Positions 6,763 through 57,490 of a DNA stretch of 64,000 bases are shown piece by piece. Under the pieces are notes generated by a model, which was given only the letters and a program-made list of their open reading frames with translations, did no database searches and had not been told where the DNA came from. Source of the stretch: Octopus vulgaris. Taxonomy: Eukaryota. The stretch lies in assembly GCA_951406725.2 (NCBI GenBank), contig OX597822.1, forward strand, positions 80,662,001 to 80,726,000, read 5' to 3'. The translations under genes and the position numbers were made by a program. Each line of letters begins with the position of its first letter. Position 1 is the first letter of the stretch.

Positions 6763-7446
6763 TATTTATTTATTTATTTATGTATAGCTGTATATTAGTG
6801 TGCTTAATGACTACAAGAATGTTGCTATCAGTGAAATATACAAAAACAAGTTACAACAATTAGAGCAGGTGCGTCGAAAATAAGAGAAGCCTCCGCAGCA
6901 GCAGCAGCAGCCGCCAGCGTCACCACTACCAACAAGAACACCAACACCATCAAGTGTACCAATGACATGAAAATTAAAATGTGTGAGATGTACTCAATTT
7001 GGCCAGAGAAACTTCCTTATAAACGGTGTAGAGTGACATTATAAGGTGGGGTCCAAAAATAGGTTCACAGTTATTCACGAAGGCACTTTAAAGTTTCTCA
7101 TAAAACCTGTTATTACACTTAAATTTCTATCGTACGATTAACTAAAGTAGTATAGAATAATGGTTTCATATATATTTTTATAATTAAGATTTAAAATATT
7201 CCAGTTTATAAATAGAGGTATAGATACATTCATACGTACATATATACATACATACATGCATGCATACATACATACATACATACATACATACATACATACA
7301 TACATACATACGTACATGTATGCATATGTATATATATATATATATATATATAAATATATGTGTGTGTGTGCATGTATGTATGTATGCATATATATATATA
7401 ATATATATACGTGTGTGTGAGTGCATATATATTTATGTATATATAT

Positions 7447-7985
7447 ATGACTCCCCTTCACAAATACTGACAGGACACAGATAGTGTGTCTATAGCCAAC
7501 TGGAGGAGATATCTTCCTGGGGCTACAAACTACAGTAGCATCCACCCTTATGGGTTAGCCATATTCAAATGGCAAATATGCAACACGATGTGTTACCGCT
7601 ACTGTTTATAACTCGCTCTGAGATTTATCATTGTTTGATTTCACTTTTTCATTATCAGTGTCAAATCGACACTGGAAAAAGTATATGTATTTGTGAAGGG
7701 ATCTGACTTCTCGTCGACAACCATAATTGTCACACGCTGATGAAAGGTAAACACCTTGAAACTCGGGTACGTGTGTATCATGTGTTGAAGACGGGGAGGA
7801 TGACTCCCCTTCACAAATACTGACAGGACACAGATAGTGTGTCTATAGCCAACTGGAGGAGATATCTTCCTGGGGCTACAAACTACAGTAGCATCCACCC
7901 TTATGGGTTAGCCATATTCAAATGGCAAATATGCAACACGATGTGTTACCGCTACTGTTTATAACTCGCTCTGAGATTTATCATT
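7447..7985 (+). mobile_element. Retrozyme-like element (family A): ~1.5 tandem copies of a 353-nt non-coding monomer with a hammerhead
   Basis: 186-bp direct repeats at 7447-7632 and 7800-7985 appear identical; the HHR lies between them; (TA)n on both flanks; no credible ORF. Confidence 0.85.
7731..7775 (+). ncRNA. Type I minimal hammerhead ribozyme
   Basis: CACACG-CTGATGA-AAGGT(AAAC)ACCTT-GAAAC-TCGG-GTA-CGTGTG: intact core, 6-bp stem I, 5-bp stem II, minimal stem III, GUA cleavage triplet. Confidence 0.93.
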
Positions 7986-8053
7986 ATATATATATATTTA
8001 TATATAAATATATACATACATACACACACACGCATGCACACACACACACACAT

Positions 8054-8109
<56 letters not shown>

Positions 8110-8742
8110 ATATGCATACATGTATGTATGTATGTATGTACGTATTAATGTATCTATACCTGTACTGGAAACCCGTTATTTTCTCCAAGTAGAAGTGAAT
8201 CTTTATTTCCTTCAACAGAAAAGATCGTGTCAACAATCTAAAATGGCTATTTATGAGTGCATGTTGTGCAACAACTCAACATCCCTGATTACCCGAATAC
8301 ATTGTGCAAACAACCCTCAACTTAGATGTGAGCATCTCTTTGACTTCTTGTGAGAACTGTCTGCCTCAGGATTTTTAACGGTGCAGTGCAAAAGCTGGGT
8401 TGAGAGTCACCTAATTGAATTGGGCAGTCGTGGGATGTGTGGGAGACTTACTCATGAAATCTTTCCCTGACGTTGGAATCCCTGTTGAAGCGGCAGAATG
8501 CACGTTCCATAATTGAAACCATAGGGAATGCTACATGATGCCTTTCACTTAAATTCATAAGCAGTTAGGTATTGGTGTAGATTTGGAACCCGCAAATTAA
8601 TGATACTCGAATAGAAGATAGTGAGAATCTCGAAATCTCAGCAATGCCACTTAAATGATTGTATGTATTGCAGGGTATCTAATAGCTGCATCAGGCAACC
8701 TATACATGTATACGGGCGTACACATTCGTAAGCTCACACGTG

Positions 8743-16271: not shown

Positions 16272-17250
16272 CTATGTTTGACTTTTGCTTTATATTAGTA
16301 CAAGTTGGCTCCAAGTCTCACCCAGAGACCTCAAGAGACAACAGGGTTGGAAGTTCATGTTGTTGTTATGCCTAGTGTGCCATATATTTGGGGGGTGGGG
16401 ATGTTGTACTAATGAATGTCTAAAAAGAAAAAAAAAAGGGTTTTTTTTTTTTTTTTTTTAAACCGAAAATTATGTTTGTTTTAAACCTTGAGATTACATA
16501 GAGAGTATTTTGCGTAGGATATGAGCAGTTCCCATGAGCACTATCTTTTGAACTTCTGCCATTTTTGGGTTTCCTGGTATCTGAGTTAGGTAGCTATCAG
16601 CCCCTTTTGCTATCATTCCCAGGGCACCTATGACAACAGGTATTGTTTTAGTCTTCAGCTTCCACATTTTGCTGATTTCTATTTCAAGATCTTTATATTT
16701 GCTCAGTTTTTGGTAGGTCTTGACAGATACATTTATATCGATTGGGACAGTCATATCAATGAGGAGGCATGTTCTTTGTTTGAAGTTTTTCGATATGATG
16801 TCTGGCCTATTTGCATCTATCTTCCTGTCAGTTTGAATGGTGAAGTTCCAGAGGAGTGAGATGTGGTCATTTTCAAGCACTGGGGGTGGTTTGTGTTCCC
16901 ACCAGTTTTTTTCATGGGGCAAATCCAGGTTTTTACAGATTACCCAGTGAATATATTGTGCAGCTCTATCGTGCCTGTTGAGATACTCTGTAGGCGCTAG
17001 AAGACTGCACTTGGAGACCACATGGTCAATGGTTTCATTTTGTTGCTTGCATACACGACACGTTGGACTGCTTCTGATCTTTAATATGTTGGCCTGGTAG
17101 TTTCTTGTTGGTAGGCATTGATCTTGAGCTGCTATGATAAACCCCTCTGTTTCAGATTTTAAGCCAGAGGCCATTAGCCATTGATGGGTCAGGGCTTTGT
17201 CGATATCTGCATTATTCGCTCTCTTTGGGTATTTGCCATAGAGAGGTTTT
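16272..17250 (-). mobile_element. Dong/R4-type non-LTR retrotransposon 3' end (CCHC + restriction-like endonuclease + 3' UTR)
   Basis: ORF 16494-17174: ETEGFIIAAQDQ, CRVC…ETIDHVVSKC, RHD, NRPDI…LIDM, KYKDL; (TAA)n on both flanks. Confidence 0.93.
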
Positions 17251-17276
17251 TCTTGCCATTTATTATTCAGAATATC

Positions 17277-17349
<73 letters not shown>

Positions 17350-17353
<4 letters not shown>

Positions 17354-18520
17354 TAGTTTTATTTTTATATCGTACTTTCACTTCACTACCGAGCGCAGTT
17401 CTGTGTGCCTTGGGTATGTGCTGTGATTTGTCGTGATGCTCTGATGGTTACTGTATTGAAAGTTTTTTGCGTAGGACGTGTGCATTGCCCAGTAGTGCAA
17501 TTTTCTGTATTTTATATATATTTGTAAGTCCTGCTGTTTTTGTTATGTATTTGTCTGAATATTTTTTATCATACCTAATGCGCCTACTATGATAAGAATT
17601 GTTTCTGTTTTTAAATTCCAGATTCGATTTACCTCTGTTTCCAGGTCTTTGTATTTTGAAAGTTTCTCCATTTCTTTTAGAAAAATGTTGTCATCTGCTG
17701 GTATTGATCCATCAATTAGAAAGAATTTTTTTCTTCATGATCTCTGACAACTATATCAGACCTATTGGCCTTAATTTCTTTATCTGTGTGTATTGGCATA
17801 TCCCAGAGTATGGTTGCTTTCTCGTTTTCTGTGACCTTTTCAGGTGTGTGACTATACCATCTTTTTTCTGTTGTTATTCCATAGTGTTGGCATAGTTTCC
17901 AGTGTATGTAGGTCCCAACTCTGTCGTGTCTGTGAATGTATTCCTTAGCTATGACTGGGCAGCCAGAGATAATATGATTTATTGTTTGTTGTCCATCTCC
18001 ACATATTCTGCAGTTACTTGTTATGTTTCTTTTCATTATATGTTTTTGGTAATTTCTGGTGGAGAGGCTTTGGTCTTGTGCTGCAATTAAAAATCCCTCA
18101 GTCTCTGCTTTCAGTCCTGAGCATCTCAACCATTGCTGGGATTTTTCTCTGTCTATTTCTTTTGCATTTAGTTTAGCCCAGTATTTGCCATGAAGTAGCT
18201 TTTCTTGCTATCGTTTTATCATGGTCCGTTGCTGTTCTAGTTTTAGTTTGGATTTCATTTGTTTTATAGCTTTTGTTGTTTCTTCTTCTTCTTCATATTT
18301 GTTACGTATTATGATTTCTTGTTTGTATTTGTCAGCTTCCTTAAATACCGAAAACAATTTTTTGTTTTGCTCGTGTTTTGTGGCTATTTGTATTAGTTTT
18401 CTTTGCTTCAGAAGTAGGTATCTATGCAGTCCTATGGTGGTTATTTTATAATAGTTTTCCGGTTTCCGGTGTGTGGTCGGGTGATCACACTCGATCATTG
18501 CATCCCACAGGATTTTGCTA
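17350..18520 (-). mobile_element. Dong/R4-type LINE 3' portion, frameshifted
   Basis: ETEGFLIAAQDQ, CRICG…HIISGC, RHDRV, NRSDIVV. Confidence 0.9.
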
Positions 18521-31490: not shown

Positions 31491-31935
31491 TAACAATATA
31501 GGATGAAGTCCCTTTCTCTACAGAAAAGGATTCCATCAAAAAGCGTGGAAGTATATTAAAAAAAACATTTTCGGTTGAAGTATAAACATCTTATAATTAA
31601 GGGCTAAAGAAGGTTATTCTATAGCCAATACACTGATTTATCCACTTATAATCCACTTGTTACAGGAAAATTGAACTGATAGCGGGCAACTAACCTTTAG
31701 AAAATTTAAATTTCCTTATCTCTATATTGAATCAATTTCTGAATTAATCCCTATAAAGGATATATTCTTCTTCAGTAGAGCTTACGAGGGAATATAAATA
31801 AAATACTCACATGGGATCATGGAAAAAGCAGAAGCTAAAAACACAACTACATTTAAGTACATCATTTATATCTATAAGTGGATAAATCAGTGTATTGGCT
31901 ATAGAATAACCTTCTTTAGCCCTTAATTATAAGAT
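31490..31935 (-). mobile_element. Hammerhead-bearing non-coding element with 63-bp perfect inverted repeat
   Basis: 31588-31650 and 31873-31935 are reverse complements; HHR between them; (TA)n on both flanks. Confidence 0.75.
31720..31780 (-). ncRNA. Type I hammerhead ribozyme candidate
   Basis: Minus: CTCTA-CTGAAGA-AGAAT(ATATCCTTTATAGGGATTA)ATTCA-GAAA-TTGATTCA-ATA-TAGAG; stem I CTCTA/TAGAG; AUA triplet. Confidence 0.7.
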
Positions 31936-31954
31936 ATATATGTATATATATAGG

Positions 31955-32180
31955 CATTATTAAATCTCAGAGCGAGATGTAAACAGTAACTGCTCGACAA
32001 TGTAAAGTATAAAAGCCATCTCAATATGGCTAACCACAAAGTGAGGGTGTTACTGTAGCTTTTATACTTTACATGAGATGGCTTTTATACTTTACATTGA
32101 TGATCTCCTGGGGCTAAAAAGCTACAGTAACACCCCCCACTTTGTGGTTAGCCATACTGAGATGGCTTTTATACTTTACA
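31955..32180. mobile_element. Family A fragment, inverted copy plus direct copy
   Basis: The reverse complement of 31955-32062 aligns to 7883-7985 (…ggttagccatatt…tactgttta…ctcgctctgagattta); 32105-32180 is a forward copy. Confidence 0.8.
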
Positions 32181-42034: not shown

Positions 42035-43965
42035 CTTCGTAACACAGTGTAGGTAAAAATGTACCGGAGTCTTTAGTCATCTGTCAAGTCACAACACAAC
42101 AATCAGACAGATAATACTTTCGTTAAGATGTGTGCTCTGCCCAATAAGGCTGCTTTTTTAAAGACATCAGTCTTGAATGGGATTTCCAGTTGCCTTAAGA
42201 AGTTTTGAAGTTTCGGTGGAATTGAACCCAACGCTCTGATCACCACTGGTTTCACTTTTACATTTCCCTCCCACATTCCATACAGTCTTGCCATTTCCAC
42301 TTTCAATTTGGAGTAATTAGTGATTTTTTTTTCAACCTCTTTACTCACAACATTTATCACATTTGGTATAGCTACATCAATGATCTGACAGTACTTGTCT
42401 CTCTTATTTAATATGACAATATCCGGCCGACGGTGTTCGATTACACAATCCGTCTGAAAATCACAGTCCCAGAGTATCGTTACTTTTCCATCCTCCTGCA
42501 TAACTTTACTAGGTACATGCTCACACCAGTTCTCTGTTACTTCATATTGGTATGTACGGCATAAGAGCCAATGAAGATACATGCACACTTTATCGTGGTA
42601 TTCTTTTTGTGCAAGGCTCTCACATCCACTTACCAAGTGGACCACATTGCCTACACTATTTCCACCGAGTCTGTATTTCTGGGTGTCAGAGTTTTTATAG
42701 ATGTTATACTTCACTGACTTGATAGCGAGAGCCTGGTCTTGTGCAGCAATGATCAGGCTTGCGGTGGTACACTTCAAATCACATCACTCAAGCCATACCC
42801 ACGATGCTGTATAATCATCAACGTCCTGTGATTTCCGTTCAAACTGTCCATGCATTCAAATTTCAAGATCTTCTTTTCTCTTCTCCTCAGATCTTTGGTT
42901 AAACTGTTCCTTGCCCATCATTTCATCTGCATTTACACCCATATCTTTCACGGCATGTTGCAGCAGGTATTCATCACTATTTATCAAATACTCAGCAAGT
43001 GTTCTCCTTTGACTCCTCATACAATGGTCTATAGTAATTAATCCTCTTCCACCATCCTTTCTTTTCATATACAGTCTGTTTACGTTTTCTTTAGGGTGTA
43101 GCGCTCCATGCAGCGTCATCGACGTTCGCGTCCTCCTATCCAAAGTTGATATTTCCTCCATACACCATTTCAGGATGGATGCACCATATCTCACCACCGC
43201 AACTGCGCAGATATTCATTGCAGTAATCAAATGTTTAGCATTCAAGTTGGGTTTCAACAGCATCTTCACCCTGTTTTGATACGCCTCGCTGACCTTGACT
43301 GTCATTTTTCTGAATAGAATGTCATCCAACTCCCAAATCCCTAAATATCTATGCCTACTACAGTCGGGTTCACTAATGGTCTCTCCTGATGGTAATCGCA
43401 ATCGTCTGCAGGATGCTTTCTTCGCTCTTTTCCTTATTAAGTACTGAGCATTTGGTAATCTCAAATCTCATACGATGTCCTTACCACACTTCTGGACTGT
43501 TTTGGTTAAGGAATCTATCTGTTTTTCAGATTTCCCAAACAATTTCAGATCATCCATAAACAGAAGATGCTTCAATGATGGGCCTTTCTTCCCACATCGG
43601 TAAGCCATTATAACTCCTCTGACTGTCGTTGTTATGTGTATTAGTGCAATTACAAATAGTAGCGGAGAAAACGAGTCACCTTGGAAGCTTCCCCTTTTAA
43701 AATTCATTTCTCCAAGGAATACATTACTTGAGTACGATTCGGCTTTCCATTCTTTCATGCTATGTACCAGAAAATTTGTGATATTGTCAGCAACACCAAG
43801 CATCTGCAGGCATTCGATGATCCAAGAATGAGGCATCATATCATATGCCTTCTTAAATACAATCCAATCCATAGACATGTTTGTATGTTTTTTAGAATGC
43901 CTCAAAACTGTTTTATCAATGACCAAGTGTTTCTCGTTATCCTGAGAACTCTTCCTACCATTGTG
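42035..43965 (-). mobile_element. Dong/R4-type LINE, 5'-truncated, broken RT + RLE
   Basis: FKKAYD..PHSWI, FQGDSFSPLLF, LFMDDLKL, YLG, IIAAQDQ, HRRPDIV…IIDVAIP; (TAA)n tail. Confidence 0.93.
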
Positions 43966-44403
43966 TCTTCCTATCTTTCATTCGAGTATGTTTACTGTTC
44001 AGAATCAAGTTTTCTCTCTTCAGGGGATTGCTTTAGTACATTTTTCTAATTCAACAGTAGTTTTTGGAGTTGTTCAGTTGCTATATACAACTTCAGTTCT
44101 TCCATATATAAAATACGGTGAATTGTCTTATCATAGAAAACGTAACCAAACTCAGCCCCGTTTATCATTTTGCTTCAAAGGAATGGTGAGTAAAAAATGC
44201 ACTGGAAATTCTGTATACTTGAATTACATGTATTTTGTAAGCGTACATTTATTCTGTCGAATAGTAATTTCGAGTGAATTTTATAGATTACAGGTAGTCA
44301 ATTATTAAGATGTAAAAGTCAGATGAGTGGTCTTTTCTAGAATAACATTGTCGACCTACCTGTAAAACAAAATGCGGACATTTATTCCCGTGTGTTGCAC
44401 TAG

Positions 44404-54583: not shown

Positions 54584-57490
<2,907 letters not shown>

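Follow-up and report, generated by a model that had tools for sequence, protein, structure and literature searches.

A young retrozyme copy in the Octopus vulgaris genome, likely inserted by a Penelope-like element, and a LINE that targets its family

The 64-kb stretch of Octopus vulgaris DNA analysed here in its entirety (the window) contains at 7447-7985 a short non-coding insertion with a hammerhead ribozyme motif, and the question raised by this locus is what kind of element it represents, which enzyme placed it there, and from what template. We find it to belong to a non-coding retrozyme family with more than 1,500 copies in the genome, and we consider it probable that this young, 5′-truncated copy was written into (TA)n by the reverse transcriptase (RT) and endonuclease (EN) of a Penelope-like element (PLE) moving around a 353-nt RNA that is predicted to be self-cleaved and is likely circular.

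The insertion, its ribozyme and its family

The insertion (Table 1) starts at a random 5′ end with a 2-nt AT microhomology and terminates at the fixed “long” 3′ site described below. It is bordered on both sides by (TA)n-type microsatellite, as a first-pass annotation of this DNA had noted, and no target-site duplication (TSD) is discernible at its junctions with the microsatellite flanks. The same annotation had reported two identical 186-bp direct repeats with a period of 353 and no credible ORF, and both observations hold: the repeats agree at every position with a spacing of 353, and the longest ATG-initiated ORF in a concatemer of units is 45-46 aa. Repeat identity had been taken to imply a recent event, and we likewise read it as youth of this copy. 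Since the 186-nt duplicate contains no locus-private variant, it shows youth only; the further suggestion that the 1.5-mer is the footprint of an RT running around a circular template does not follow from this copy alone. Having one hammerhead, the copy would not itself release unit-length RNA. Its flanks (7199-7446 and 7986-8171) resemble each other in inverted orientation, with roughly 80% identity over 169 nt, and have a short non-repetitive stretch in common, which places the insert close to the middle of an imperfect palindrome.

Table 1. Coordinates of the features discussed, in window positions
Feature	Positions	Strand	Remarks
Left microsatellite flank	7219..7446	.	(TA)n at junction
Whole insertion	7447..7985	+	single-armed 1.53-mer: unit positions 1-353, then 1-186
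One 353-nt unit	7447..7799	+	42% GC, no ORF >46 aa, strongly self-paired
Direct repeat, copy 1	7447..7632	+	unit 1-186; from sequence comparison
PSE-like hexamer ATCAGT	7654..7659	+	unit 208; 59 nt upstream of predicted start at ~7713 (unit near 267)
Rod, 5′ arm	7687..7700	+	compensatory changes between subfamilies
Empty LINE target	7711..7730	+	unit 265-284, just upstream of hammerhead; duplicated as TSD in occupied copies
Canonical type I hammerhead	7723..7781	+	distal helix I, internal loop, core, helix II, GAAA, short near-palindromic helix III
Direct repeat, copy 2	7800..7985	+	100% identical to copy 1
Rod, 3′ arm	7807..7820	+	pairs with 7687-7700; fold and covariation
PLE-type “tail”, 43 nt	7943..7985	+	between fixed ends; unit 143 = 7942, unit 186 = 7985; 189 in other copies
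Right microsatellite flank	7986..8140	.	(TA)n at junction

The elements of the type I hammerhead lie where they had been annotated, at 7731-7775: helix I is formed by 7731-7736 and 7770-7775, with a distal helix I further out (7723-7727 and 7777-7781), followed by the core CUGAUGA (7737-7743), helix II (7744-7757), GAAA (7758-7761) and the cleavage triplet GUA, which ends at 7769. The motif and its covariation predict self-cleavage after 7769, that is, after unit position 323. The label “minimal” did not survive, however: with 6 bp in helix I plus the distal helix, 4-5 bp in helix II, and a 2-bp helix III with a near-palindromic tetraloop, the ribozyme fits the “canonical” metazoan type I as defined in PMC4209133, and not the minimal, PLE-type form with a 4-5-bp helix I, a 7-8-bp helix II and helix III absent. 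A structural hammerhead descriptor matched the 64-kb window at 7737 and at one weak site near 31775 on the minus strand, and gave no match of any kind in 100 shuffled windows. Rfam yielded no hammerhead at the gathering score in the window and none at E<=10 in 7300-8100; microsatellite-driven matches to Rfam miRNA models in the window were disregarded. The weak descriptor match lies inside a MITE-like element at ~31582-31941, which has 69-bp inverted repeats at 97%, and is probably due to chance. Alignment and variant counts show that the present copy has an A at 7725 in place of the G found in nearly all other copies, which introduces a mismatch into distal helix I.

That the hammerhead caps a long rod was confirmed by folding: both annotated arms pair, the fold of 7680-7830 has a z-score of -5.7 (reached by 0/200 shuffles), and the monomer folded as a circle has a z-score of -8.4 (0/100 shuffles). 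In an alignment of 22 subfamily A and 14 subfamily B sequences, which are ~80% identical, the proposed structure is paired in 94.6% of cells, versus 37-52% for slid controls. Nine base pairs are changed on both sides, five of them in many sequences, each of these five recurrent double changes probably being one inherited event. A shuffle control of the pairing, which ignores relatedness, reached the observed value in 40/500 trials for pairs and 0/500 for cells.

The genome (2.8 Gb in 227 contigs) was searched with the unit, giving 2,659 first-look candidates of which 40 were scored, and with short patterns, of which one from the tail, 30 nt long, had 1,557 exact matches and one from the hammerhead 835, with none for the reversed controls. 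A 35-mer characteristic of the GUA subfamily to which the present copy belongs has 119 exact matches, again with none for its reversed control. The annotation had allowed for a unique local duplication; what we found instead is a family of more than 1,500 dispersed copies, the short ones scattered over nearly all large contigs. Identity is about 95-100% within subfamily A, about 86% for C, 80% for B, and 61-79% for further relatives; copies range from 0.1- to 5-mers, with arms of up to five head-to-tail units. The genome-wide counts, together with the end analysis below, uphold the earlier reading of a dispersed, multimeric, young non-LTR retrozyme with a (TA)n target.

The family has every testable feature of the metazoan non-LTR retrozymes as set out by Cervera and de la Pena (2020; PMC7229834), namely a short, non-coding, self-paired unit that has GC below 45%, occurs in tandem copies and contains a single canonical type I hammerhead, the helix III of which is 2 bp long. 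The octopus unit of 353 nt (within 150-450 nt) has 42% GC and ORFs below 47 aa, and forms tandem copies; its single hammerhead, which Rfam models do not match, has a conserved core and helices; and the dispersed, mobile, multicopy family lacks LTR organisation, its repeats being the overlap of the tandem period with variable 5′ ends. Examples given in PMC7229834 are the 350-390-bp repeats of mussel and the 350-bp axolotl repeat with HHR_Amex2; mobilisation of circles by PLEs is proposed there, and expression and circles are reported for mussel, coral and axolotl. What the octopus family, known here from genome sequence, shows beyond that description is that its 3′ ends are fixed at two sites, that insertions can consist of two inverted arms and lie in (TA)n, that the unit contains a PSE-like motif, and that a LINE is dedicated to it. 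The retrozyme class and its proposed PLE link are already in print (PMC7229834; bioRxiv 10.64898/2026.07.22.740005). The annotation knew of no description of this family, and our literature search, which left Repbase, Dfam, most subscription journals and supplements aside, likewise turned up neither an octopod retrozyme family nor an analysis of insertion ends, nor any LINE that targets a retrozyme.

Assembled contigs from presumed RNA runs (X1, X2, X14) and from unlabelled runs (X15, X16, X19) cover the unit; they show neither ends, strand nor circles, and the head-to-tail joint seen in them also exists in the genome. Three of these runs (X14, X16, X19) are labelled with three other organisms and cover at least 90% of the unit, which suggests that the family is probably common to related species. 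Elsewhere in the window, 31961-32166 is a two-armed inverted remnant of a diverged (73-80%) retrozyme relative, with a long-site end next to (TA)n and the hammerhead gone.

Insertion ends and the search for a mobilising partner

The ends were analysed in 110 family-A loci, comprising the 27 best unit matches and 83 more after removal of 10 duplicates. Although BLAST-defined ends are ragged by a few bases, 170 of 177 outer 3′ ends fall into two classes of 85 each: a short class at 133-149, with 63 ends exactly at 143, and a long class at 178-195, with 40 at 186 and 21 at 189; the other 7 lie elsewhere. Two inverted arms are present at 67 loci, of which 59 combine a short with a long end, one has two long ends, none has two short ends, and seven have an unclassified end, so that 59/60 classifiable loci are paired short with long (p = 1e-16). 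The remaining 43 loci, including the one described here, are single-armed. Of the outer 3′ ends, 151/177 have (TA)4 within 30 nt. The 5′ ends, in contrast to the 3′ ends, vary, with 127 different ones in 182 arms, and subfamilies B and C share the same two 3′ ends. The annotation had expected multimers and permuted insertions: multimers and varied 5′ ends are indeed found, but the 3′ ends are fixed at two positions and free permutation is not observed.

Two fixed 3′ ends with paired arms are, by analogy, the two-start-site “tail” signature of PLEs. An inverted repeat with a 30-40-bp tail is part of PLE anatomy (PMC8557442, PMC3846280), and the in vitro work of PMC11167929 shows that the tail reaches from one internal RT start site to a second one, with both DNA strands cut and extended by the PLE. 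Positions 143 and 186/189 would accordingly correspond to two reverse-transcription start sites. EN-containing PLEs (Neptune, Naiad and Poseidon PAc; PMC8557442, PMC11167929, PMC3846280) have in common with the octopus family an inverted 5′-truncated arm, a tail at one end, two RT starts and a bias for (TA)n, or more generally for a microsatellite or AT-rich target, and non-autonomous Chlamys elements such as MRC1 share its head-to-tail copies. The family differs from them in having no ORF, a canonical rather than minimal hammerhead, and a tail of 43-46 nt, which exceeds the published 30-40 bp and is a point against a PLE. On the strength of the two-site 3′ ends, the paired arms and the (TA)n target, a Penelope-like RT, as the annotation had supposed, is the most likely mover.

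These end statistics also bear on spread at the DNA level, by unequal crossing-over or extrachromosomal DNA circles, in the manner of newt satellite 2. Tandem units within arrays are more alike than units of different loci, as such a process would predict, but the dispersal of copies, the two fixed ends, the asymmetric arms, the (TA)n target and the ragged 5′ ends are marks of retrotransposition that largely refute it, and we regard it as highly improbable.

Autonomous elements with RT, GIY-YIG and a Neptune-type Cys linker are present in the genome, including a young 781-aa family, and they end in (TA)n, with their two ends 35-40 nt apart. Could the insertion be an ordinary 5′-truncated pseudo-LTR plus tail of such an element, with a partial tandem of 353-nt period by chance? 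Its fixed 3′ ends, inverted arms and tail reproduce PLE anatomy exactly, and PLE pLTRs carry hammerheads (PMC4209133). However, the unit has no RT and GIY-YIG ORF of its own, and none was found joined to it in 110 + 30 + 19 retrozyme loci. Of the pseudo-LTR hallmarks named in the annotation, fixed ends and a flanking PLE ORF, the former is therefore present but the latter was not found. Among 50 GIY-YIG loci (6,136 first-look candidates, 150 scored, a set to which 3′ ends of N-terminal-EN (Naiad) elements do not belong), no PLE itself includes sequence similar to the unit. A unit match is found at a single one of these loci (L072, 79% near its ORF), where it is a separate insertion of an older retrozyme subfamily, and 30 loci of that subfamily have no upstream ORF. 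Arms of up to five head-to-tail units also speak against a pseudo-LTR, as does the fact that, of sequences other than the unit, only an APE-type LINE recurs next to it, and this LINE has a TSD of its own; a pseudo-LTR origin thus appears very unlikely. In this respect the octopus family departs from MRC1-type elements, which resemble the 3′ end of their partner, no such partner having been found for it in the 50 GIY-YIG loci. Li, Clavereau and Pollet (2026; bioRxiv 10.64898/2026.07.22.740005) likewise conclude that the retrozymes of animals derive from PLEs and are not autonomous, on the evidence of co-occurrence and pLTR homology in Xenopus; their main text analyses neither molluscs nor tails nor target sites. 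Our evidence is the insertion footprint, and pLTR homology was not found in the 50 GIY-YIG loci.

Some PLEs of this genome have hammerhead-like sequences of their own. The 781-aa Neptune-type PLE and its relatives (L061-L070, L038-L057) contain a hammerhead-like motif with a palindromic helix III at 70-130 nt from the 3′ end, in which U3 and A8 replace C3 and G8; the same swap occurs in the diverged retrozyme L258. Such a replacement can keep hammerhead activity. At L083 and L085, subfamily-B copies adjoin pieces of a further PLE family, which has a hammerhead of minimal type.

Circular or linear template

Measured from the cleavage site, the fixed 3′ ends are 173 and 216-219 nt further downstream, and arms longer than that necessarily cross the site. 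Such crossings are free of indels in 158/159 cases. Longer arrays were compared in 19 subfamily-C loci, selected for several pattern matches, with arms of up to 1,790 nt. Divergence in this subfamily is 0.8% between tandem units (114/14,031 positions), 1.25% between arms (126/10,078) and 1.9% between loci. Of 20 rare locus-shared variants, 14 occur in every covering unit, several of them across both arms (four of the 14 come from L277 and L278, apparently one duplicated locus); examples are L267, with 5/5 units twice, and L280, with 7/7 and 6/6 across both arms. The other 6/20 are present in some units only, and the order of some is shared by the two arms, a pattern suggesting that the template was multimeric at those loci. 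The locus-private variants found in all units of subfamily-C 2- to 5-mers favour one template copied round and round, likely a circle.

Subfamily A gives a weak one-template signal: divergence is 1.7% both between tandem units and between arms, these differences are often no smaller than those to the nearest other locus, and 10 private variants are shared versus 146 unshared. The possibility of two templates per insertion was considered and rejected, as arms and tandem units of subfamily A diverge alike (p = 0.61). A>G changes make up 7/21 shared rare variants, with no T>C, versus 23/242 unshared ones (p = 0.005); at a stricter threshold they make up 3/10 (p = 0.14), two of the seven represent one site, and in subfamily C the 20 shared variants include 5 A>G and 2 T>C. 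This may be taken, post hoc, as a weak hint of an A-to-I editing imprint.

The main competitor is PLE-driven insertion from a linear uncleaved multimer, or by template jumping on cleaved monomers, with the hammerhead dispensable and no circle involved. In vitro, the anole PLE inserted without any need for hammerhead cleavage and used mainly uncleaved RNA as its substrate (PMC11167929); moreover, 8/9 Xenopus dimers did not cleave (bioRxiv 10.64898/2026.07.22.740005). The weak signal in subfamily A and ordered unit differences in L272, L274 and L280 also agree with a linear template. Nevertheless, the variants private to a long array occur throughout its units and in either arm, so that a linear template would need every source to be a homogenised array; jumping probably would not give junctions as exact as those observed; and hammerhead and rod are kept with compensatory changes. 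A linear template strikes us as a rather unlikely competitor to the circle.

With a circular template, the cycle could run as follows. An snRNA-type promoter in each unit would transcribe source copies with two or more hammerheads, cleavage after position 323 would release unit-length RNA, and a host ligase would close the circle. The PLE protein would then nick both (TA)n strands and start cDNA at 143 and 186/189, sites at which the footprint is seen directly and the enzyme is presumed; priming at two fixed sites would give either one arm or two inverted arms, and synthesis would cross the cleavage junction precisely and stop at random, giving 0.1- to 5-mers. For the copy at 7447-7985, 539 nt would have been synthesised from site 186. 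Until now the circle-to-PLE route for animal retrozymes has been a proposal based on co-occurrence and homology. The octopus family supplies footprints: initiation at two fixed positions, arms that come in pairs, junctions crossed exactly and private variants that extend over whole arrays. These name RNA positions and a DNA target and make the PLE-and-circle route directly testable in vitro, the genome itself providing intact 781-aa PLE ORFs for the purpose.

A LINE that inserts at the predicted retrozyme start site

Foreign sequence interrupts the unit at position 265 in 6 of the 110 loci, each time the same LINE. It is about 5.3 kb long, with a CCHC zinc knuckle in ORF1 and APE, RT and zf-RVT domains in ORF2, and the closest named homologue of its protein is from Argonauta (63%), the homologues bearing no clade name. 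Domains and target habit are like those of L1/Tx1 elements, and the LINE may belong to the Tx1 clade. The 3′ ends of the 21 closest copies adjoin unit position 265 in 20 cases, one of them via a tandem LINE, and the remaining copy lies off target with its own 13-bp TSD. Thirteen copies have retrozyme sequence up to about 284 on their 5′ side, that is, a TSD of 19-20 bp; the remaining close copies are truncated, rearranged or without upstream retrozyme. Of ten distant copies fetched, nine occupy the equivalent site of retrozyme relatives with 61-79% identity, six of them with a TSD of 14-17 bp whose sequence is that of the host variant. With target specificity taken as more than 20% of flanks in one sequence, with TSD, the LINE is target-specific (20/21 and 9/9 flanks), and it inserts site-specifically at the predicted retrozyme start site. 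The tenth distant copy belongs with five others to a third group that sits elsewhere, in clustered targets (L259, L263-L266, L296; contigs C27, C2, C17); Rfam detected no RNA gene around the sites of this group or the off-target copy.

The position of the unit next to so many LINE copies (20/21), the truncated LINEs without upstream retrozyme in L229 and L233, and L228, with a LINE in both arms, might suggest that the LINE is the autonomous partner and the unit its 3′ region. However, thirteen copies are flanked by retrozyme at either end, with a TSD, the TSD also lies between tandem LINEs, the TSDs of sister LINEs follow each host variant, and the off-target copy has a TSD of its own. There are, furthermore, about 21 close LINE copies versus more than 1,500 LINE-free retrozyme copies with PLE-type ends, so that a LINE partner is scarcely credible. 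The LINE is instead best regarded as a guest of the retrozyme. At L235, the host is of subfamily A but the 5′ flank is of subfamily C, as would result from co-transfer of upstream RNA, and at least 200 nt of the upstream unit are kept in 12/13 LINE-bearing copies versus 9/63 ordinary arms (p = 1e-7).

Why this site? The PSE lies about 60 bp upstream of the snRNA start (PMC4494074). In the octopus genome, ATCAG(T/C) is found at -57 to -61 in 23/24 U1/U2 loci, and at -58/-59 from the LINE junction in 6/6 diverged retrozyme targets examined. The hexamer at 7654 is at -59 from unit 267, and the chance probability for the placement of the motif is about 0.004; the hexamer also lies in a conserved hairpin, and an 18-nt U1/U2 matrix does not single it out (117/300 shuffles score as high). 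Since the full matrix is not significant, we can but infer the promoter, in which the hexamer may act; newt satellite 2 has a promoter of snRNA type. Insertion at the start site would then likely represent borrowing of the retrozyme promoter by the LINE. The 24th U1/U2 locus has a LINE-like 3′ end at +1 of its U2 gene (L305:1400-1512; 1/12 U2 loci, judged by eye).

Tx1-clade LINEs, as described in PMC4494074 (Tx1L in Tx1D, Keno in U2, Tx1-Mar in Mariner-N4), similarly combine APE and RT with insertion at one site in another repeat, a TSD and tandem insertions. The guest LINE differs in that its target is a retrozyme, the sequence of which varies while its distance from the PSE-like motif is constant. 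Within the literature searched, this target class was not found and no paper mentions both “retrozyme” and “Tx1”; it offers a natural test of promoter-tethered integration. A broader scheme, which we put forward tentatively and with less than even confidence, would have three tiers of parasites: promoter-bearing retrozyme circles, a dimeric PLE RT that copies them round from two start sites into both (TA)n strands with occasional A-to-I edits being fixed, and a long-tracking LINE that locates its site by the position of the promoter complex and not by sequence.

The LINE-retrozyme chimeras L228, L229 and L233 may have moved as a unit by the PLE route. Judging from translations, the window contains other LINE fragments at 16494-18207, 42103-43977 and 55124-57256, the last with a 710-aa RT-like open frame.
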